NCBI GenBank assembly: GCA_001784435.1
Contig: MFQZ01000005.1
Coordinates: forward strand, 25,015-89,014
Source of the DNA: Candidatus Magasanikbacteria bacterium RIFOXYC2_FULL_42_28
Lineage (GTDB): Bacteria; Patescibacteriota; Patescibacteriia; Magasanikbacterales; GWA2-37-8
DNA length: 64,000 nt
Reading direction: 5' to 3'
The notes beneath the pieces are model-generated. The model had not been told where the DNA came from, ran no database searches, and saw nothing but the letters and a program-made list of their open reading frames with translations. This document shows positions 3,548 to 57,510 of this stretch, in pieces (positions within the stretch are counted from its first letter, which is position 1; each line of letters starts with the position of its first letter). The translations under genes and the position numbers were made by a program.

Positions 3548-4165
3548 ATGAACGAAAACATCAAGGAAATCCTAGAAAAAATAAGTAATCTTAATAAGGA
3601 ACTATCCGCCAAATACGCCCAGCTTGCTGAAAAATACGGCTTTCATTTTGCCAATAAAAAAGTGGTCTTTTTGGAAGAATTTCGTAAGCGCAATCTAAAA
3701 TTTAGAATTCCGGTATGGAAATATGTTTTTCCGCGCAATTTTCGGCATTTGTTATCTTTGCCGTTTATTTACATGATGATCGTGCCGGTGGTTATTCTTG
3801 ATATTTTTATTACTATTTATCATACGGTCGCGTTTCCGCTCTATCATATTCCCAAAGTCAAGCGCGGTGATTTTATTGTTTATGACCGGAAATTTTTGGA
3901 TTATTTAAATATTATTCAAAAAGTCCACTGCATCTATTGCACCTATGTCAACGGCCTATTCGCCTACGCGGTCGAAATCGCCGGTCGGACCGAACGCTAC
4001 TGGTGTCCGATAAAATCCGCCCACAAACCCAAATTCCACCACGGCTGGTATAGCGAATTTGCCGATTATGGCAGTCCGGAGGAGTGGAAGGAGAAGTTTA
4101 ATGATGAAAAGGCGTTTGCGGGGTTGTGCGAGAACGATAAAAATAATAAAGACACACAATCTTAA
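3548..4165 (+). CDS. Hypothetical membrane protein
   Basis: ORF with a hydrophobic segment LLSLPFIYMMIVPVVILDIFITIYHTVAF. No recognised domain. Confidence 0.4.
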   Translation: MNENIKEILEKISNLNKELSAKYAQLAEKYGFHFANKKVVFLEEFRKRNLKFRIPVWKYVFPRNFRHLLSLPFIYMMIVPVVILDIFITIYHTVAFPLYHIPKVKRGDFIVYDRKFLDYLNIIQKVHCIYCTYVNGLFAYAVEIAGRTERYWCPIKSAHKPKFHHGWYSEFADYGSPEEWKEKFNDEKAFAGLCENDKNNKDTQS

Positions 4166-9534: not shown

Positions 9535-9606
9535 CTCCCAGGGTCGGATTCGAACCGACGACCAACTCGTTAACAGCGAGCTGCGCTACCGCTGCGCTAC
9601 CTGGGA
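9535..9606 (-). tRNA. tRNA-Asn (anticodon GTT)
   Basis: Cloverleaf deduced by hand: acceptor TCCCAGG/CCTGGGA, D-arm GCGC-AGCGGTA-GCGC, anticodon loop CTGTTAA, T-arm GTCGG-TTCGAAT-CCGAC, discriminator G. CCA not encoded. Confidence 0.85.
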
Positions 9607-10838: not shown

Positions 10839-11657
10839 ATGTTTTACGCTATAATTTTAGGTATTGTCGAAGGCTTCACCGAATTTTTGCCAATTTCTTC
10901 TACTGGGCATATGATTTTGGTTGGGATGTGGCTCGGCACGGTTAATTCAGAATTTTGGAAAAGTTTTGAGATTGCGATTCAGCTCGGCGCAATTTTGGCC
11001 GTGGTCGTTTTATATTGGAAAAAAATTTGGGATGTAAAAAATGTTTGGCCGAAATTGTTGGTGGCGTTTTTGCCGACGGCGGTAATTGGGCTGGCGCTTT
11101 ATAAAATTGTTAAGCATTATTTATTGGGGAATGGTATGGTGGTGTTGGGGGCTTTGTTTATCGGCGGTGTCGTGATTATTTTGTTTGAGAGATATTATGA
11201 GAAAAAACACGCTTCGGAGGCAAATCAAACTTTAAGGGATTCCTCGACTTCGCTCGGAATGACAATTGATAGTTTTGAAAAAATTACTTATCGCCAAGCA
11301 TTTTACATCGGCCTATTTCAATCGATCGCGATTATCCCGGGCGTATCGCGCAGTGCGGCGACGATTATCGGTGGGCTCGCTTTAGGATTATCACGGCCGT
11401 TAATTATAGAATTTTCTTTTTTATTAGCCGTGCCAACTATGGCCGCGGCCACCGGACTGGATTTATTAAAAAGTGGCTTTAATTTTTCCGGCACAGAGTG
11501 GGGGATAATGGCTGTAGGATTTACCACTGCCTTTTTAACCGCTCTAGTTGCAATAAAATGGCTTTTGCGGTATATTACTAAGCACGACTTTACTATTTTT
11601 GGATGGTATAGGATCGCATTGGTCATGCTATGGCTAATTGTAATTTTAACTTTTTAA
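10839..11657 (+). CDS. uppP: Undecaprenyl-diphosphate phosphatase UppP/BacA, carrying an in-frame half-copy of palindromic element A
   Basis: EGFTEFLPISSTGHM signature. Residues DSSTSLGMTIDS are encoded by 11237..11272, which matches the right arm of family A. Confidence 0.9.
   Translation: MFYAIILGIVEGFTEFLPISSTGHMILVGMWLGTVNSEFWKSFEIAIQLGAILAVVVLYWKKIWDVKNVWPKLLVAFLPTAVIGLALYKIVKHYLLGNGMVVLGALFIGGVVIILFERYYEKKHASEANQTLRDSSTSLGMTIDSFEKITYRQAFYIGLFQSIAIIPGVSRSAATIIGGLALGLSRPLIIEFSFLLAVPTMAAATGLDLLKSGFNFSGTEWGIMAVGFTTAFLTALVAIKWLLRYITKHDFTIFGWYRIALVMLWLIVILTF
11237..11272. repeat. Family A half-element (GGGATTCCTCGACTTCGCTCGGAATGACAATTG) inside uppP, in-frame
   Basis: Identical right terminus CGCTCGGAATGACAA as the full copies. 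Translated as SLGMT. Confidence 0.75.
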
Positions 11658-15372: not shown

Positions 15373-15472
15373 TGTCATTCCGACGACGAAGGAGGAATCT
15401 CTATCCCGTTAGTGATTTTACAGCCAAATGGAGATCTCCCGTCGGATGCGAATCCTCGCTCGGGATGACAAA
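15373..15472. repeat. Palindromic element family A copy, intergenic (iscS-nifU)
   Basis: TTGTCATTCCGACGACG...CGCTCGGGATGACAAATG termini. Internal GGAGGAATCTCTATCCC / GGAGATCTCC arms. Confidence 0.85.
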
Positions 15473-16633: not shown

Positions 16634-17395
16634 ATGGAAAAAGGCAAATTATACATCGTCGCCACGCCCATTGGGAATTTGGACGACATTACTTTACGCG
16701 CTTTAGCGACTTTAAAGAGCGTTGATTTTATTTTGTGCGAAGATACGCGCGTGACGAAAAATTTATTAGACCGGTATGAGATTGTGAAACCGACGATTTC
16801 GTATCATCAACATAGCGACGCGCGCAAGACCAAAGAAATTATTGAATTGTTAGAAAACGGTAAAAATTTGGCGTTAGTAACGGACGCGGGCACGCCGGGA
16901 ATTTCTGATCCGGGGAATTTGTTGATTGCCACCCTACTGTCATTTCGAACCCACGCAGTGGGTGAGAAATCTCCATCCCGTTCGCCCAACGACAATGGAG
17001 ATTCCTCGTCGCTTCGCTCGCTCGGAATGACAAATGACGACAAAGTACAAATTGTCCCCATTCCTGGCCCCTGCGCCGCTATCGCCGCCCTCTCTATTTC
17101 CGGCTTCCCAACTGACAAATATTTTTTCATGGGATTTCCGCCCCATAAAAATAAACGGCATAAATTTTTTCAAGAAGTTGCCACTGCCAAATACACTGTC
17201 GTATTTTACGAATCCGGCCATCGTATTACCAAATGCCTGACTGAATTACAAAAATTTTTAAAACCGGAACAAAAAATAATTATCGCCCGCGAACTTACCA
17301 AAAAATTTGAAACAATTTATCGCGGTACGGCTGGTGATATTGGTAATATGCAGGTGGAAGAACGAGGGGAGTTTACCGTGATAATTTCTAATTAA
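16634..17395 (+). CDS. rsmI: 16S rRNA (cytidine1402-2'-O)-methyltransferase RsmI, carrying a full in-frame copy of palindromic element A
   Basis: Tetrapyrrole-methylase fold motifs LYIVATPIGNLDDIT and DAGTPGISDPG. A ~33-aa insert TLLSFRTHAVGEKSPSRSPNDNGDSSSLRSLGMTNDD is encoded by element 16937..17037. Confidence 0.85.
   Translation: MEKGKLYIVATPIGNLDDITLRALATLKSVDFILCEDTRVTKNLLDRYEIVKPTISYHQHSDARKTKEIIELLENGKNLALVTDAGTPGISDPGNLLIATLLSFRTHAVGEKSPSRSPNDNGDSSSLRSLGMTNDDKVQIVPIPGPCAAIAALSISGFPTDKYFFMGFPPHKNKRHKFFQEVATAKYTVVFYESGHRITKCLTELQKFLKPEQKIIIARELTKKFETIYRGTAGDIGNMQVEERGEFTVIISN
16937..17037. repeat. Family A full-length element inside rsmI, in-frame
   Basis: CTGTCATTTCGAACCC...CGCTCGGAATGACAAATG. 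The reading frame is maintained through the element with no stop. Confidence 0.85.
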
Positions 17396-19582: not shown

Positions 19583-20515
19583 ATGATTATTGACACGCAC
19601 TGCCATATTCAATTTCGTGGTTATGATAACGACCGCGCCGAGGTTATTAAACGTTGTCGCGAAAAAGACGTAATAATGAACGCCGTCGGCACGCAAATTG
19701 ATACTAGTCGCGCCGCCGTGGAGTTGGCCGAAGCCAATCCGGATATTTACGCTACCATTGGTTTGCACCCCATTCATTTATTTACGACACGCGTGGACGA
19801 AGAAGAATCATCTTTCTTAAGTCGCGAAGAAAATTTTGATTACGACGCGTATAAAAAATTAGGGCAAAGCGAAAAAGTAATCGCAGTGGGGGAGTGCGGT
19901 TTGGAATTATTTCATATTCCGCCCGAAGCCGACCGGGAAGCGATTTTAAAAAAACAAAAAAACGTTTTTTTGTTACAAGTTAAACTGGCCCAAGAATTAA
20001 ATGTACCACTAGTCATCCATGTCAGAGATGCCTATGACGAGATGCTGGAATTGCTATTGTCATTGCGAGGAGCGCAGCGACGCGGCAATCCCACCGTTAA
20101 ATTGCCACCCTACGGGTGGTCTGCCGTAGGCATGACTTCGCCTTTGGCTCGCAATGACATTAAAGGCGTCGTCCACTGCTATTCCGGCAACTGGCGCCTG
20201 GCGCAAGGATTTTTGGACTTGGGATTATATTTAGGGTTTACTGGTGTGATCACTTTTCCACCCCGCAAAACCAACCCACAATCAACTTTGGATTTGCTGG
20301 AAGTCGTCAAAAATGCTCCACTGGATAGAATTTTAATAGAAACTGACTCACCCTATTTAGCCCCTCAAGCATATCGTGGTCAAAGAGCCGAACCGTGGAT
20401 GGCTATTGAAAATTTGCGTAAAATCGCGGAGATTAAAGGATTGGATATGGCCGAAGTAACTGAAGCTGTCTTAAATAACACAAAAAAAATATTTACAAAA
20501 ATCAAAAACTGTTAA
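19583..20515 (+). CDS. tatD: TatD-family metal-dependent hydrolase, carrying a full in-frame copy of palindromic element A (TGCGAG variant)
   Basis: DTHCHIQF, GLHPIH, VGECGLE, IHVRDA, HCYSG and ETDSPYL motifs. A 34-aa insert LSLRGAQRRGNPTVKLPPYGWSAVGMTSPLARND sits between the IHVRDA and HCYSG motifs. Confidence 0.85.
   Translation: MIIDTHCHIQFRGYDNDRAEVIKRCREKDVIMNAVGTQIDTSRAAVELAEANPDIYATIGLHPIHLFTTRVDEEESSFLSREENFDYDAYKKLGQSEKVIAVGECGLELFHIPPEADREAILKKQKNVFLLQVKLAQELNVPLVIHVRDAYDEMLELLLSLRGAQRRGNPTVKLPPYGWSAVGMTSPLARNDIKGVVHCYSGNWRLAQGFLDLGLYLGFTGVITFPPRKTNPQSTLDLLEVVKNAPLDRILIETDSPYLAPQAYRGQRAEPWMAIENLRKIAEIKGLDMAEVTEAVLNNTKKIFTKIKNC
20057..20160. repeat. Family A full-length element inside tatD, in-frame (termini TGTCATTGCGAG...CTCGCAATGACA)
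   Basis: Perfect 12-bp terminal inverted repeat. Internal CCACCCTACGGGTGG hairpin. 104-105 nt, so the frame is preserved. Confidence 0.85.
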
Positions 20516-24726: not shown

Positions 24727-24734
24727 TTTTTATT

Positions 24735-24858
24735 GTCATTCCGAACGAATGTGAGGAATCTCCATCCCAATCACAAACCGAATGGAGATCCCTCGCTCGC
24801 CTTGGCGAAGCCTATCGGCGAAGCCAGGTCGACGCGAGTCTCGCTCGGGATGACAGTT
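24735..24858. repeat. Palindromic element family A copy, intergenic (atpA-atpG)
   Basis: TTGTCATTCCGAACGAATG...TCGCTCGGGATGACAGTTG. Internal GGAATCTCCATCC / GGAGATCCC arms. Confidence 0.85.
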
Positions 24859-25878: not shown

Positions 25879-27258
<1,380 letters not shown>

Positions 27259-27284
27259 ATTTAAATTTGGTAGTTTACACGCGA

Positions 27285-27535
27285 CGTATGGGTTTGCCTC
27301 TCGCCACCGGTGTCGTCCCGACCTCGGTCGGAACGCACCTACCGCTCAGATTTATGCGAATAAATCTTCCGCGAGTTGACTCAAGGCAAACCCATACGCC
27401 GCGTTAGCTGGTCTATAAAATAACTAGCAGATATATTGGCTTACCTTGAAGCAACTCGCGGAGCCGAGGCGAGCGGTAGGTGCGGCCGGTCGCAGGGACG
27501 ACACCGGTGCTGAAAGGTAAGCCAATATAGCTGCG
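27285..27535. repeat. Large (~250 bp) composite palindrome: two inverted copies of a ~110-nt hairpin-forming element in the atpD-atpC spacer
   Basis: Copy 1 is 27285..27398 (closing stem CGTATGGGTTTGCCT / AGGCAAACCCATACG). Copy 2 is 27436..27525 in opposite orientation (closing stem TTGGCTTACCTT / AAGGTAAGCCAA). Both share CACCGGTGTCGTCCC, GCACCTACCGCTC and TCCGCGAGTTG. GC is about 55%. Confidence 0.7.
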
Positions 27536-27550
27536 TAAAATAATCACGCT

Positions 27551-27988
27551 ATGGGAACATTACACTTCAAAATCGCCACACCGGAAAAAGTTGTCTATGA
27601 AAAAGATATTTTTCAGGTTTCTATTCCAACCACGATGGGGGAGATAACAATTTTACCTCACCACATTCCGTTAGTATCGGTTTTACAAACCGGGGAAATG
27701 CGCGTAAAAGATGCCGAAGGTGAACACTTAATTGCGATTGCGGGTGGGTTTATGGAAGTGCGCGGTAAAAATGAAGTTGTTGTTTTAGCAAGTAATGCGG
27801 AATTGGAGACTGAAATTGATTTGGACCGAGCGGAAAAGGCGCGCCAAGCGGCCATTGACCAAATGGCGAGAGCAAAAGCAGGCGAAGATATTGATTTTGC
27901 GCGACTTCAAGCCACGGTTGACCGCGAAATGAACCGCTTAAAAATCGCCCGAAAATACCGCAAATTACCCCCACCTAAAGAAAATTAA
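27551..27988 (+). CDS. atpC: F0F1 ATP synthase subunit epsilon
   Basis: Typical N-terminal beta-sandwich (ATPEKVVYEKDIFQVSIPTTMGEITILPHH) plus helical C-terminus. Confidence 0.9.
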   Translation: MGTLHFKIATPEKVVYEKDIFQVSIPTTMGEITILPHHIPLVSVLQTGEMRVKDAEGEHLIAIAGGFMEVRGKNEVVVLASNAELETEIDLDRAEKARQAAIDQMARAKAGEDIDFARLQATVDREMNRLKIARKYRKLPPPKEN

Positions 27989-31912: not shown

Positions 31913-32042
31913 TTGTCATTGCAAGCGAAGCGATCTCTCGTCAATTGTCATTTCGAATCCCCGTCGCAGGGGTGAGAAATCTCTGTCTTAAATAATTTTA
32001 CTAACCGGACAGAGATTCCTTCTTCGTCGTCGGAATGACAAC
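31913..32042. repeat. Palindromic element family A copy, intergenic, with duplicated left terminus
   Basis: TTGTCATTGCAAGCGAAGCG...TTGTCATTTCGAATCC...CGTCGGAATGACAAC. The internal pair GAGAAATCTCTGTC / GACAGAGATTCC is reverse-complementary. Confidence 0.8.
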
Positions 32043-32154: not shown

Positions 32155-35100
32155 ATGCTTAATAATACCCTCAACCCCGCCCAACTCGAAGCCATAAAAC
32201 ACACCACCGGCCCACTTTTGATTGTCGCCGGGGCTGGTACTGGCAAAACTACCGTGATTGCGGAAAAAATCGCTTATCTTGTTAATACCCAAAAAATTCC
32301 AGCCAAAAATATTTTAGCTGTTACTTTTACCGAAAAAGCCACTGCCGAGATGTCCGACCGCGTGAGCGCCTTATTGCCGGACGGGGGATTGGACGCGACG
32401 GTTTGCACCTTTCATTCTTTGGGACGTAGAATTTTGGAAACGCATGGATTGGAAGTGGGGTTGCCGAATAATTTTAAAGTGTTAAACGATATTGAAGCGT
32501 GGTTGCTTGTACGCCAAAATTTAGAAAGATTTAATTTGGATTATTATCGACCGCTGGGTAATCCGGCAAAATTTATTCACGCGCTTTTAAAACATTTTGG
32601 CCGGTGTAAAGATGAGTTGATTACACCGGAGAAATATTTAGCGCATGCGGAAAATTTACAGTTGGATGGAGATTCCTCGTCGCTCCCGCTCGCTCGGAAT
32701 GACAATGACGGTGAAAGCGATGCGCTTATCCAAAAACGCACAGCCGAACTATCCTCGGCTTACCACTTGTATAATCAAATCTTATTAGAAAACGACTGCT
32801 TGGATTTTTCCGATTTAATTTTCTATACAGTTAAACTTTTACGCGAACGGCCAAATATTTTAAAAATTTATCAAAACATTTGGCCGAATATTTTGGTAGA
32901 TGAATTTCAAGACACCAACTGGGCACAATATGAATTAATAAAATTATTGGCCAAAGGGCGCGAAGATACGGTTGGCCTAACGGTGGTAGGTGATGATGAC
33001 CAAAGTATTTATAAATTCCGCGGTGCTAGCGTCGCCAATATTTTACAATTTTCAACTGACTTTCCAAAATCCAAACAAGTGGTGCTGACCGAAAATTACC
33101 GCTCTGGCCAAACAATTTTGGACTATGCGCATAATTTTATTACCTTAAATAATCCGGACCGACTGGAAGCAAAATTAGGGTTAGATAAAAAATTAATTTC
33201 CGCTACTAAAAAATTTGCCACCGTAGAATTTAGCAATCCAACGAGTGCTAGTGCTGAGGGTGAGGAGATTGCCAAAAATATTCTGGCACTAAAAAAGAAA
33301 AACGATTTGGGGTGGTCGGACTTCGCCGTTTTATGTCGCACCCACCAGATCGTTGACCAAATTTTGCCATCTTTAACCAGTCGCGGTATCCCAACGGTAA
33401 GCGCGGGCGCATCCGGTTATTTACGCACTGGCGCGGCCTTAAACTGCTTGGCGGCTTTTAAATTGGCGGATAATTATCACGAATCACCGGCCGTCTATCG
33501 CTTATTAAATTCCGTGATTTACGATTTACCTTATGAAGACGCGTCTAAATTGGCATTGTTTGTTAAAAGAAAATCAGTATCACTTTACCAAGCGGTTAAA
33601 GCCGGAGTAAATGGAGAAATAAAATTAAGTACCGCTGGACAAATTTGCACTGCTAAATTTTTGGCCGATACTGCTAAATTATCCGTGGACGCTAAAACCG
33701 AACCGGCAATTAAGGTGTTGTATAATTTCTTAGAAAATTCCGGTTATTTAAAAAAGTTGGCGGACGCGCCGGAAAAAAATTATCGCGATATTATGGCTTT
33801 GCAAGCGCTGTTTGATTATTTGGAAAAATTCCAAAGTGATAATCCGGATACAGGCGTCGGCGCGTGGCTTAAATATTATGAATACGCGCTGGAGGCCGGG
33901 GAAACAGGGGAGGCCGAAGCCGATAGCGCCGATGGCGTGCCAGTTTTGACTATCCACAGCGCCAAGGGACTGGAATTTGAATATGTCTTTATTCCGTCAC
34001 TCGTGGATTTGCGTTTTCCAGCGGTGAATCGTTCGGAAGCGATTGAATTGCCGAGCGAATTAGTTAATGAAAAAGTTTTGCCAGAAGACGACGCGCATTT
34101 GGAAGAAGAGCGACGTTTGTTTTATGTGGCACTAACACGCGCCAAAAGCGGGGTATTTTTATCCGGCGCCAAGGACTACGGCGGGGCGCGCGAGAAAAAA
34201 TTATCACGATTTGTTTCCGAATTGGAAAAAACGAATAAGGTAAAATTGAACGACCACTCCCTCACCCCCTCCTCCGAGAGGCGGGGGAAGGCGACGATTT
34301 CCCCTCCTGCCCGAGGAGGGGACGAAGGGGCGGTAAGAGCAATTACCACCCCTCAAACATTTTCCTTTTCTCAGATCTCAACCTACCAATCCTGCCCCTG
34401 GCAATATCGCTATAAATTCATTTTGCATATTCCCACTTTGGGCAAAGGCGTGTTTAGTTTTGGCCACACCTTGCATCTTACCTTACAAAAATTTTACGAA
34501 CGACTAATCGCGTTAAATTCCGCGCGCCAAGGCGAACTGTTCGACGCGCCTCACATTTCTCCCCCTGCCCGAGGGGGAGACGAAGAGGGGGTGGGAGCAA
34601 TCACAGTTGCCAGTTTAGAAGAACTACTGGAATTATATCGCGCTAACTGGCAAGATGATTGGTTTTATAGTGCGGAAAATAAAGCCCGCTACCGTGCCGA
34701 AGGGGAAACAATCTTAAAAAACTTTTACGCAATAAACACAAAAGCCGGCTGGACAATACCGCTGGGTTTAGAAACCGGTTTTCGATTTAAAGTGGCTGGC
34801 GCTGATTTCAAAGGTCAAATTGATCGCATTGACCGCCAAGCCGATGGAAAAATCCGCTTAATTGACTACAAAACCGGCCGACCAAAAACTACGCTTACTT
34901 TTAACGATAAATTACAGTTATTAGTTTACCAATGGGCCGCCACGAGTATTTCGGCGTTAGCTCAAATGGGGGAAATCGGCACACTTTCGTATTTTTATTT
35001 AAATGATGGCACCGAGATGGATTTTATCGGCGCAGAAAAAGATTTAGCCAAAACCGCTGCGACTGTGGAAGAAATAATTAAAAAAATTCAAGCGCGCGAT

Positions 35101-35172
35101 TTTACATCCACGCCCGATAAAGAAACCTGCGCGAATTGTGATTTTCGCGATATTTGTGAATTTAGAAAATGA
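32155..35172 (+). CDS. UvrD/PcrA-family SF1 helicase fused to a C-terminal PD-(D/E)XK Cas4/AddB-like nuclease with Fe-S cysteines. Carries three in-frame repeat insertions
   Basis: Helicase motifs I AGAGTGKTT, II LVDEFQDTN and VI ALTRAK. C-terminal CPWQY...IDRID...IDYKTG...CANCDFRDIC (C-x(n)-CxxC-x5-C). Inserts at 32664..32712 (family A half) plus 34262..34350 and 34554..34603 (GC-rich family). Confidence 0.85.
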   Translation: MLNNTLNPAQLEAIKHTTGPLLIVAGAGTGKTTVIAEKIAYLVNTQKIPAKNILAVTFTEKATAEMSDRVSALLPDGGLDATVCTFHSLGRRILETHGLEVGLPNNFKVLNDIEAWLLVRQNLERFNLDYYRPLGNPAKFIHALLKHFGRCKDELITPEKYLAHAENLQLDGDSSSLPLARNDNDGESDALIQKRTAELSSAYHLYNQILLENDCLDFSDLIFYTVKLLRERPNILKIYQNIWPNILVDEFQDTNWAQYELIKLLAKGREDTVGLTVVGDDDQSIYKFRGASVANILQFSTDFPKSKQVVLTENYRSGQTILDYAHNFITLNNPDRLEAKLGLDKKLISATKKFATVEFSNPTSASAEGEEIAKNILALKKKNDLGWSDFAVLCRTHQIVDQILPSLTSRGIPTVSAGASGYLRTGAALNCLAAFKLADNYHESPAVYRLLNSVIYDLPYEDASKLALFVKRKSVSLYQAVKAGVNGEIKLSTAGQICTAKFLADTAKLSVDAKTEPAIKVLYNFLENSGYLKKLADAPEKNYRDIMALQALFDYLEKFQSDNPDTGVGAWLKYYEYALEAGETGEAEADSADGVPVLTIHSAKGLEFEYVFIPSLVDLRFPAVNRSEAIELPSELVNEKVLPEDDAHLEEERRLFYVALTRAKSGVFLSGAKDYGGAREKKLSRFVSELEKTNKVKLNDHSLTPSSERRGKATISPPARGGDEGAVRAITTPQTFSFSQISTYQSCPWQYRYKFILHIPTLGKGVFSFGHTLHLTLQKFYERLIALNSARQGELFDAPHISPPARGGDEEGVGAITVASLEELLELYRANWQDDWFYSAENKARYRAEGETILKNFYAINTKAGWTIPLGLETGFRFKVAGADFKGQIDRIDRQADGKIRLIDYKTGRPKTTLTFNDKLQLLVYQWAATSISALAQMGEIGTLSYFYLNDGTEMDFIGAEKDLAKTAATVEEIIKKIQARDFTSTPDKETCANCDFRDICEFRK
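32664..32712. repeat. Family A half-element inside the helicase gene, in-frame (encodes DSSSLPLARNDNDG)
   Basis: ATGGAGATTCCTCGTCGCTCCCGCTCGCTCGGAATGACAATGACG is nearly identical to the right half of the rsmI copy. Confidence 0.8.
34262..34350. repeat. GC-rich palindromic element (family GC), about 1.5 tandem copies, in-frame in the helicase (encodes TPSSERRGKATISPPARGGDEGAVRAIT)
   Basis: CCCCTCCTGCCCGAGGAGGGG hairpin. About 70% GC in an AT-rich gene. Homolog at 34554 and in grpE (55546). Confidence 0.75.
34554..34603. repeat. GC-rich palindromic element (family GC) copy 2, in-frame in the helicase (encodes ISPPARGGDEEGVGAIT)
   Basis: ATTTCTCCCCCTGCCCGAGGGGGAGACGAAGAGGGGGTGGGAGCAATCAC. Confidence 0.75.
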
Positions 35173-40994: not shown

Positions 40995-42455
40995 ATGACG
41001 GAAAATTTAAACGAGGAAGCTGTGCGCTTAGAACACTTAAACGCCATTAAAACTGCCGGAACCAATCCCTATCCGGCCAAATCCGACCGCACCCACACCT
41101 TGGCGGTCGCACACGCGAGCGCCACTGATACCGCGGTAACAGTAGTCGGCCGAATTATGACTATGCGCACCATGGGCAAATTGTGTTTCGCTCATTTGCG
41201 TGATGATAGTGGAAAAATACAAATCGCGGTTTCGGAAAAAGAATTAGGCGCGGACAAATTTAAATTTTTTACCAAAAATTTGGAGATGGGGGATTTTGTG
41301 CAAACGGAAGGAACGATTTTTACCACACACAAAGGAGAAATTTCCGTGCTCGTAAAAAATTATACTGTTTTGGCCAAAACTCTTCTGCCATTGCCGGAAA
41401 AATTTCACGGGCTGTCTAATGTGGAAACACGCTATCGACAACGTTATTTAGATTTAATATCCAGTGACGAAGCGATGCGTATCGCCAAAGTCCGATCACT
41501 ACTGGTGCGCGAAATTCGTAATTATTTTGACGCTGAAGGATTTTTTGAGGTAGAAACGCCGATTTTACAAACACTTTATGGTGGCGCTTTGGCCAAGCCA
41601 TTTGTTACGCACCACAACGCGCTGGATATTCCTTTGTATTTGCGCATTGCACCGGAATTGTATTTAAAACGATTAATAGTTGGCGGTTTTGAAAAAGTTT
41701 ACGAAGTGGCACGCTGTTTTCGCAACGAAGGCATTGACCATAACCACAATCCGGAATTTACGCAAATTGAATTTTACTGGGCTTACGCCGATTACAATAA
41801 ATTAATGGATTTTGTGGAAAAGATGTTACCACATATTATTACGGCCGCCGATTTGCCTTTGAAATTTACGGCCGAAGGCCAAGAGGTTGATTTCACACCG
41901 CCATATCCGCGCGTTTCAATGCGAGAGTTAATAAAAAAATACGCAAAAATTGACATTGAAGATTATTCGGATCAAGCGAGTATGTTCGCGTTAGCGAAAA
42001 AATTAAATGTAGATGGTGTAGATCCGGGAACCGGACGCGGGAAATTGATTGATGAAATTTATAAAGCGTACGCTCGGACAAAAATTATTAATCCGATATT
42101 TATGATTGATCATCCGGTGGAATTATCACCTTTGGCCAAGAAAAAATCCGATGACCCGCGTTATGTGGAAAGATTTCAATTGCTGTGTGTAGGTGGTAAC
42201 GAATTGATGAACGCTTTTTCGGAATTAAACGACCCGATTGACCAAGAGGAACGACTTAAAGAACAAACGCGTTTGGCCGATGCCGGCGACGAGGAGTCAA
42301 TGCCCTATGATGAGGATTTTGTGACTGCTTTGAAACACGGGATGCCGCCGACGGCTGGCCTTGGTATGGGTATTGATCGGCTAGTCAAATTATTGGTTAA
42401 CGCCGATAATTTGAAAGAGGTGATTTTGTTTCCGACTTTGAAGCCGAAGGAGTAG
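40995..42455 (+). CDS. lysS: Lysyl-tRNA synthetase (class II)
   Basis: OB-fold N-terminus, class II motifs FRNEG and GMGIDRL. Confidence 0.9.
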   Translation: MTENLNEEAVRLEHLNAIKTAGTNPYPAKSDRTHTLAVAHASATDTAVTVVGRIMTMRTMGKLCFAHLRDDSGKIQIAVSEKELGADKFKFFTKNLEMGDFVQTEGTIFTTHKGEISVLVKNYTVLAKTLLPLPEKFHGLSNVETRYRQRYLDLISSDEAMRIAKVRSLLVREIRNYFDAEGFFEVETPILQTLYGGALAKPFVTHHNALDIPLYLRIAPELYLKRLIVGGFEKVYEVARCFRNEGIDHNHNPEFTQIEFYWAYADYNKLMDFVEKMLPHIITAADLPLKFTAEGQEVDFTPPYPRVSMRELIKKYAKIDIEDYSDQASMFALAKKLNVDGVDPGTGRGKLIDEIYKAYARTKIINPIFMIDHPVELSPLAKKKSDDPRYVERFQLLCVGGNELMNAFSELNDPIDQEERLKEQTRLADAGDEESMPYDEDFVTALKHGMPPTAGLGMGIDRLVKLLVNADNLKEVILFPTLKPKE

Positions 42456-42457
42456 TT

Positions 42458-42883
42458 ATGACAAAGGTAATGTTATTCGGCACCTTTGACATCCTGCACC
42501 CCGGACATGAATATGTCTTTAAGCAAGCGCGACGTTATGGTGACCATTTAACAGTGGTAATAGCACGCGACGCGACGGTTTTAAAAATAAAAAAACATTG
42601 TCCGGTAAATTCAGAAAAGGAGCGCGTTAAAAATTTAAAAAAGACCGGTTTGGTTAACAAAGTGGTTTTGGGAAATTTGGGCGATAAATTGGTGGTAGTA
42701 AAAAAAGCCAAACCAAACATAATTGTGCTCGGATACGACCAAAATAATTTTATTGACGAATTACGTGCCGAATTTCCCAAAATAAAAATCGTGCGTTTAA
42801 AATCTTATTACCCCAAAAAATACAAAAGTTCGCTAATGACGAATTATGAAAAAAATTCCGCTACTCATCGCCACCACCAATAA
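42458..42883 (+). CDS. HxGH nucleotidyltransferase (cytidylyl/adenylyltransferase family, RibL/FAD-synthase-like)
   Basis: GTFDILHPGH motif. 3' end overlaps the next gene in another frame. Confidence 0.55.
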   Translation: MTKVMLFGTFDILHPGHEYVFKQARRYGDHLTVVIARDATVLKIKKHCPVNSEKERVKNLKKTGLVNKVVLGNLGDKLVVVKKAKPNIIVLGYDQNNFIDELRAEFPKIKIVRLKSYYPKKYKSSLMTNYEKNSATHRHHQ

Positions 42884-57423: not shown

Positions 57424-57510
57424 TTTATTTACTGTCATTCCGATGAAAATCGGAATCTCTGTTGACTTACAAATTGGACAGGGATCCCGATTTTCATCGG
57501 GATGACAATT
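57424..57510. repeat. Palindromic element family A copy, intergenic, near-perfect palindrome
   Basis: CTGTCATTCCGATGAAAATCGGAATC...GGGATCCCGATTTTCATCGGGATGACAATT. Confidence 0.85.

Follow-up and report, generated by a model that had tools for sequence, protein, structure and literature searches.

A review covers the palindromic repeats of bacterial intergenic regions and how they affect mRNA (PMC3184786). ERIC sequences are imperfect palindromes of ~127 bp that lie in transcribed spacers in either orientation, are present or absent among relatives, and are co-transcribed and able to alter the stability of neighbouring mRNA (PMC3184786). The Correia repeats (CREE) of Neisseria, 100–157 bp long, are intergenic, form long mRNA hairpins, show presence/absence at the strain level and also change mRNA stability when co-transcribed, and the RPEs of Rickettsia are palindromic elements of 105–146 bp (PMC3184786).

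Here we describe a palindrome in the F-type ATP-synthase operon of a bacterium that homologues of its AtpC place in Candidatus Magasanikbacteria (CPR/Patescibacteria), a group with tiny, tightly packed genomes of whose non-coding or mobile DNA almost nothing is known. The window, by which we mean the whole 64-kb stretch of DNA analysed, holds one such locus. We give an even chance to the reading that it consists of two oppositely oriented members of a small, undescribed, low-copy family of 108–126-nt structured repeats of Candidatus Magasanikbacteria, which would be mobile or copy-converting in a structure-dependent manner.

In kind, the element stands nearest to ERIC, Correia repeats and RPEs. 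It resembles ERIC in being palindromic and intergenic, in occurring in either orientation and in its presence or absence among relatives; however, it belongs to another phylum and has no sequence relation to ERIC, which possesses conserved ends, TA flanks and tens to hundreds of copies, whereas in our element the ends are free, the branched core is invariant and the copies are few. The conserved 26-bp TIR of the Correia repeats has no equivalent in the element, and neither IHF sites nor promoters, which Correia repeats contain, are evident in its spacer. Correia hairpins are processed by RNase III, and the repeats are associated with a TA duplication. RPEs, too, are palindromic, sit in a reduced genome and have no known transposase, but they often lie in frame inside genes, whereas the copies described here are strictly intergenic; to our knowledge, a branched fold with covariation has not been reported for RPEs. 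REPs form hairpins, come as inverted doublets, keep their pairing over the long term and are mobilised as folded single-stranded DNA by an HUH (Y1) enzyme. Our inverted doublet recalls the REP/REPIN-RAYT system, as does the constant T-rich left flank ending in TTAC, but REPs are 20–40 nt long, carry a GTAG motif and have a linked RAYT gene, and the present unit, which is branched, has three to five times their size. Assignment to REP/REPIN was rejected on this size and architecture, and because GTAG stands upstream of only the first of the two copies (c1). An integron attC site was also rejected, because there are no paired R''/R' core sites (RYYYAAC ... GTTRRRY) at the ends, the flanking TTAC and TAG are unpaired, and the centre is fixed with the ends free. 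The defining features of IS200/IS605-PATEs, AAV-ITR-like elements and CRESS origins, compared by eye, do not fit. Finally, the element shares with self-cleaving ribozyme classes a variable closing helix, an invariant junction, arms with tetraloops and a scattered intergenic distribution.

Two inverted units in the atpD–atpC spacer

The spacer between atpD and atpC is 292 nt long and belongs to an operon on the + strand. The upstream gene atpD (F1 beta; 25882..27258, +), an ORF call with Pfam ATP-synt_ab on the identical gene in L001, ends with the TAG at 27256–27258, and the downstream gene atpC (F1 epsilon) occupies 27551..27988 (+). The original prediction had interpreted the palindrome as two inverted copies of one hairpin element, and a repeat finder recovered both the inverted arms (I1, 33 nt, 82%; I3, 29 nt, 83%; I5, 14 nt, 100%) and the local closing stems (I4, 21 nt, 95%; I2, 27 nt, 89%). 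The division into two copies thus stands, but their extents are wider than had been proposed, reaching from 27279 to 27404 in the first copy (c1) and from 27427 to 27534, instead of 27436–27525, in the second (c2).

Copy c1 (126 nt, 27279..27404, + strand) is in the + orientation of the element and co-directional with the atp genes. It follows a T-rich left flank (27259..27278, +) whose TTAC abuts the stem; in element orientation this position reads TTAC, TATC or TTTC in all copies. The outer helix P1 is formed by a 5' arm (27279..27299, +) and a 3' arm (27384..27404, +), which pair over 21 bp with one A.C mismatch. Within it, the P2 strand GCCA (27303..27306, +) pairs with TGAC (27377–27380), and two of the four P2 pairs covary. 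In the P3 hairpin (27309..27339, +), the base, GGUG-U-CG / CG-CACC, is invariant, whereas the tip, closed by a CUCG loop, varies. P4 (27344..27376, +) combines an invariant base, GCUC/GAGU, with a long variable hairpin, AGAUUUAU-GCGA-AUAAAUCU, whose arms are compensated in the relative L045, where the GCGA loop is retained; 3' of the hairpin comes a 5-nt bulge (UCCGC).

An AT-rich spacer of 22 nt (27405..27426; TAGCTGGTCTATAAAATAACTA) separates c1 from c2 (108 nt, 27427..27534, − strand), in which the P1 arms lie at 27427–27447 and 27514–27534 around a core at 27448–27513, and the tip of P3 is degenerate with three broken pairs. The closing stems of both copies measure 21 bp and have their single mismatch at the identical position. 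The right flank (27535..27550, +; GTAAAATAATCACGCT) contains no Shine-Dalgarno-like purine run, and c2 ends 16 nt ahead of the atpC ATG at 27551, the distance originally given. The three internal blocks that had been reported as shared, CACCGGTGTCGTCCC, GCACCTACCGCTC and TCCGCGAGTTG, are indeed identical in c1 and c2 and have no other occurrence within the 64-kb window. The GC content is 0.59 in the element against ~0.41 in the window, and the covariance model scores c1 at 95 bits (E 2e-19) and c2 at 113.7 bits (E 1e-23, − strand). An 8-nt direct repeat, TAAAATAA, brackets c2 (27416–27423 and 27536–27543), and the remaining copies show at most TA as a candidate target duplication; the flanks are AT-rich, so that these repeats may have arisen by chance.

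Fold, covariation and invariant core

The unit folds as a branched single strand with an invariant junction. P1, of ~19–20 bp in the model, leads through a 3x3 internal loop to the 4-bp P2 and then to a three-way junction with P3 and P4. This fold was obtained with RNAalifold on five copies, in which 18 of 41 pairs covary, and pair counting agrees with it on seven copies, namely both copies of the window (win_c1, win_c2), both of L045 (L045_c1, L045_c2) and the single copies of L020, L054 and L055. In the seven-copy set, 93.6% of cells are paired and half of the pairs (20/40) have changed on both sides, which bears out the original claim that the differences between the stems are compensatory. 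None of 500 shuffles matched any of the three measures of covariation, and sliding the partner by 1–3 columns lowered pairing to 27–40%. Invariant in all seven copies are the junction-proximal pairs, the unpaired junction, the bulge and the nucleotides on the 3' side of the internal loop; the distal base pairs covary, and conservation rises toward the core.

Each half, folded as the original prediction had advised, is far more stable than its shuffles (z −6 to −10.7). For c1, the fold has −65.2 kcal/mol and z-scores of −8.9 on the + strand and −10.7 on the − strand; for c2, the z-scores are −6.0 (+) and −6.5 (−). The energy minimum of the full spacer is one hairpin formed by c1 with c2, at −143 kcal/mol compared with −120.6 for two local hairpins. 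Selection for this c1:c2 pairing was rejected, because the block 2 substitutions of L045 in c1 and c2 are uncompensated across the copies.

No ORF of at least 50 aa exists in the element, and a six-frame translation profile, used for ORFs running through the element, found only the ORF of L054. A consensus scan of 27259–27550 found no promoter- or terminator-like sites beyond shuffle expectation; on one strand the 3' flanks read TAGC.. or TCTAYR.., and on the opposite strand GTAAAA, and an intrinsic terminator, in which a U-tract directly follows a GC-rich hairpin, was rejected for want of any terminator-like site in this interval. The earlier suggestion of a paired MITE was close in spirit: at 108–126 nt, the unit is a non-coding stem-loop below the 200–400 bp that bound a MITE, and both filled and empty states exist at orthologous sites of two loci. 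What did not hold is the signature of conserved ends around a variable core. The P1 arms differ at 13–24 of 40 positions between loci (mostly 16–24/40) and only their complementarity is kept, which agrees with the initial view that the ends are no conserved TIR and led us to reject a classic MITE with a conserved TIR. As far as the sequences go, the element reverses the MITE pattern, with its core fixed and its ends free.

In searches at permissive E-values, no Rfam family passed its gathering threshold at the element in five loci; the best noise consisted of miRNA-shaped hairpins (E 0.03–0.12) and SAM-VI (E 4), and the only Rfam pass in the window was one tRNA (9535–9606). Two pattern scans of viral contigs gave 0 matches, and distant-mode blastn of phages and plasmids gave no match. 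In genome contigs, the block1-block2 pattern, which was too strict in that L020 and L045_c2 read GGTGTCGCCC, matched three times, in each case in high-GC genomes without the stem and hence by chance. A block2-block3 scan of metagenomes returned 38 matches, one of which was a true copy (L020); the remaining 37 were high-GC, mostly coding-like and without the other conserved blocks or the stem, and were rejected. With filters off, a covariance-model search of the whole window and of ~46 kb from relatives at 67% identity found no further copy. Nothing specific on the element came up when the literature was searched for repeats or structured RNAs of the CPR.

Filled and empty junctions at atp and lysS

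The search for homologues called for by the original prediction yielded further copies at the atp locus of L045 and at the lysS locus of L020, L054 and L055. At the atp locus, L045 (AtpC 92% identical) has a 292-nt junction with both copies in the same place. The junction measures 19 nt in L046 (75%), 24 nt in L047 (71%) and 3 nt in L060 (67%), and atpD and atpC overlap by 11 nt in L057 (67%); L046, L047 and L057–L061 lack the element at this junction. These empty junctions indicate that the palindrome is a lineage-specific insertion into a tightly coupled junction. A conserved cis-regulator of the atp operon, which would need to be present across the clade, was rejected on the same absences. 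For the same reason, a dedicated and conserved role in setting the stoichiometry of epsilon (atpC) found no support, and the unit moreover occurs at the unrelated junction of lysS with a cytidylyltransferase gene in other lineages. In L051 (GCA_964413355.1, CAYPRV010000048.1; AtpC 82%), a run of N (3548–3557) lies exactly at the atpD-atpC junction, which suggests an assembly or scaffolding break at a similar palindrome there.

At the second locus, L020 carries a single true copy (895–1002) between lysS and a cytidylyltransferase-like gene (PF01467), ending 12 nt before the ATG of the latter. LysS is 90% identical between the window and the L020 locus, and in the window this junction is empty (42453..42460, +): the TAG of lysS is followed by TT and then by the ATG of the cytidylyltransferase-like gene. 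Further states of the lysS junction were found via homologues of the downstream protein. It is filled in L054 (165–272) and L055 (829–939), whose flanks resemble those of L020 (…TTATC, unit, TCTAYRATTYCY-ATG), and empty in the window (2 nt), L052 (4 nt), L056 (11 nt) and L053 (2 nt with the start at 368, or 14 nt with the gene-caller start at 380). The downstream proteins of L054 and L055 are 71% identical and fall outside the group of L020, L052 and the window (78–82%). The filled sites are therefore those of an outgroup pair and one ingroup lineage, a pattern that requires either that the unit was lost cleanly several times or that a single site gained it repeatedly. Taken over both loci, comparison of the junctions shows that the unit is an insertion: two unrelated junctions of co-directional genes that otherwise abut carry it in some lineages and lack it in others. 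The filled lysS junctions (L020 873–1014, L054 152–284, L055 806–951) are also extended by 13–23 nt on their left side and by 12 nt (TCTAYRATTYCY) on their right, neither of which is matched in the empty sites of 2–4 nt, so that the hairpin may be only a part of the inserted unit. At this locus, L020, L054 and L055 share almost nothing in the outer half of P1, yet each keeps 17–19 of the 19 pairs in the model.

Between the window and L045, the synonymous p-distance in atpD and atpC is 0.56–0.59 (dS 1.0–1.2). The p-distance of the elements is 0.18–0.22, with 48 substitutions, intact pairing and the three blocks nearly unchanged. In P1 of c1, the 5' arm has seven changes and the 3' arm five, and each of the latter five faces a 5' position that has changed as well, with which it forms a Watson-Crick pair in L045 (hypergeometric p ~0.001 for the overlap); there are four compensated double changes, and the mismatch of the window is a Watson-Crick pair in L045.

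P1 distances are 8/40 (win_c2 against L045_c2) and 12/40 (the c1 orthologues) within atp and 10–17/40 within lysS. P3 behaves differently. Across loci, it differs at only 1/27 positions between L020 and L045_c2, 2/27 between L054 and win_c2, 3/30 between L055 and L045_c1 and 6/31 between L055 and win_c1, compared with 7/27 between the orthologues win_c2 and L045_c2, and each of three P3 variants is present at both loci. P1 therefore tracks the locus but P3 is common to different loci, which means that the copies exchange sequence and implies gene conversion or re-insertion between them, so that the genomes would hold, or would have held, several copies. In addition, c2 is of the 108-nt subtype found at lysS and c1 is of the subtype with the long P4 hairpin; since the subtypes differ, the atp pair looks like two arrivals and not like a local inverted duplication.

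Mobile element, host RNA or by-product

A non-autonomous element that depends on its structure, and that is mobile or copy-converting, is the reading we prefer. An enzyme acting in trans, with its gene elsewhere, would recognise the folded single strand of such an element via the invariant junction, and the two atp copies would be separate arrivals of the two subtypes. It could be tolerated inside operons in that it would not terminate transcription, and P1 would close the insert compactly, keeping the path from the upstream stop to the downstream start at ~30–40 unpaired nt per unit. Co-transcription would place very stable hairpins in the atp mRNA, of about −50 to −65 kcal/mol per unit and −143 for c1 with c2. 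Such hairpins would lie 16 nt ahead of a start codon lacking a Shine-Dalgarno sequence, which makes it plausible that atpC expression is affected, as a predicted side effect and not as the element's reason for existing.

The presence of a second palindromic repeat family in similar spacers of the same genome, including atpA-atpG, counts in favour of mobility. Against it stand the failure to find a transposase, a target-site rule or an autonomous partner of the element, the pattern scans of viral contigs, genome contigs and metagenomes finding no autonomous IS with common ends. The low copy number, with one locus in 64 kb and one true match in the JGI metagenome scan, also speaks against it, as do the clean losses or repeated insertion that the lysS junction demands. 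Since the end sequences are not conserved, an ordinary TIR-binding transposase is argued against. Furthermore, the core and the pairing have been kept over a dS of ~1, and deeper at lysS, which fits a function at the host or RNA level better than a selfish insert; selfish copies would decay in place unless gene conversion from active copies could refresh them.

Whichever reading holds, the element is a branched, covariation-backed unit of ~110 nt that inserts where genes are translationally coupled, including an ATP-synthase operon, and it stays folded and conserved while neighbouring synonymous sites are near saturation. If selfish, it would represent a mode of moving that reads structure instead of end sequence; if functional, it would add a new class of RNA to a lineage in which few regulators are known. 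It is also a compact object for testing, since nature provides an empty site and three variants of P3 besides the two orientations.

The same conservation in place, well below the neutral rate, would be expected of a cis-acting host module of the polycistronic mRNA, which might be a determinant of processing or stability (an RNase III/E site or a protective 3' hairpin) or a ribosome bridge that tunes the downstream gene; we hold this to be a doubtful but serious alternative. The geometry is constant at both loci, 13–22 nt past the upstream stop and 12–16 nt before the downstream ATG, five of the seven copies point the same way with respect to the genes, and on that strand the loops are of the GNRA (GCGA) and YNMG (CUCG) types and the P4 base has an invariant G.U. 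The mRNA-stability effects of ERIC and Correia repeats provide a precedent (PMC3184786). However, the element is missing from the same junctions of close relatives that keep the genes, and c2 has the opposite orientation yet is equally conserved. Moreover, transition-type mismatches on the sense strand are A.C in 10–11 cases against one G.U, the opposite of what selection on a sense RNA would leave, and the sense-strand fold is the weaker one in six of the seven copies.

A bolder reading is a new class of functional structured RNA of the CPR, protein-binding or catalytic, which purifying selection would keep at every site it occupies and which would home to translationally coupled junctions; this seems rather unlikely to us. 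If it were so, the wobble asymmetry would point to an active molecule made in antisense to the host operon, and the element would be a mobile antisense RNA gene instead of a passive repeat.

The strand asymmetry likewise bears on a narrower proposal, that of a small non-coding RNA gene, antisense to the flanking genes and copied to a few junctions, which would regulate in trans or in cis as an antisense RNA. Whatever the orientation of the element, 10–11 of the 12 transition mismatches are G.U on the antisense strand (two-sided p ~0.006, on a small sample of 12 events), and the folding energy is lower on this strand in six of the seven copies. Mutational strand bias as the cause of the asymmetry was rejected, since neither the synonymous transitions, with their symmetric counts (C<->T 58, A<->G 45), nor the 4-fold composition support it. 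In the − orientation, the P1/P2 loop reads 5'-UGA/GAR-3', which allows sheared G.A pairs in tandem, and purines dominate the junction strands, a feature of many functional RNAs. Outward transcription of both copies in this same orientation could be driven from the AT-rich stretch that separates c1 from c2. On the other hand, the spacer scan gave no promoter- or terminator-like signal, the stable tetraloops and the invariant G.U belong to the other orientation, and the wobbles of L045_c2 lie on the + strand of the element. All in all, we regard such a gene as unlikely.

The pattern of a fixed core, covarying helices and GNRA/YNMG loops is that of a ribozyme or a protein-binding RNA. The hammerhead, twister and hatchet ribozymes, which are also scattered in intergenic DNA in either orientation, combine a variable stem, an invariant core and tetraloop hairpins; a self-cleaving or other catalytic RNA of this kind would be new, because no known family matched. 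Yet it is an improbable explanation, being an argument from architecture alone: the signature of every known ribozyme is missing, the unpaired core on the tetraloop strand is pyrimidine-rich, and nothing indicates a cleavage site.

Intrastrand template switching in replication (quasi-palindrome correction) is established for imperfect palindromes, and it could keep a functionless palindrome complementary. The arms do change together and mismatches are few; however, this process would explain neither the unpaired junction and bulge, invariant across seven copies with synonymous sites near saturation, nor the same unit at a second locus, and it has very little to recommend it as the whole account.

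A chimeric inverted join made in assembly is refuted: the N run of L051 indicates that a palindrome can break assemblies at this junction, but the check for a chimera found the identical 292-nt spacer in three further independent assemblies (JGI 3300025152, Logan SRR2090171 and Logan SRR3989339) and, in a fourth (Logan SRR22387921), a relative's diverged orthologue that differs by 48 substitutions with its pairing intact.

The window also contains a second, unrelated and much commoner family of palindromic repeats, 75–127 bp long, with at least seven full copies in 64 kb (2287–2375, 15373–15470, 16938–17032, 20058–20159, 24734–24855, 31946–32040, with an extra partial arm at 31914, and 57433–57507) and solitary arms at 11254, 32694 and 53963. 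Its conserved ends, TGTCATTCCGA ... TCGGGATGACA, enclose an inner inverted repeat, GGAATCTCC...GGAGATCC, and, judged by these sequences, the family has the classic MITE pattern. One copy fills the atpA-atpG spacer. In several copies, the arms differ at the same T/C position, giving a T.G wobble on one strand, and the left flank is mostly YTAY, like the TTAC/TATC flank of the atp/lysS element. In addition, an 80-nt GC-rich island (34254–34333; GC 0.73 against ~0.41) with a hairpin of −50.2 kcal/mol (z −3.2) lies inside an ORF of 1005 aa (32155–35172) and may be a palindrome inserted in frame into a coding gene, by analogy with the RPEs of Rickettsia. Gene orientation changes from − to + near 9.4 kb, beside the tRNA at 9535–9606, and from + to − near 49.4 kb, and cumulative GC skew is lowest near 8 kb and highest near 46 kb.
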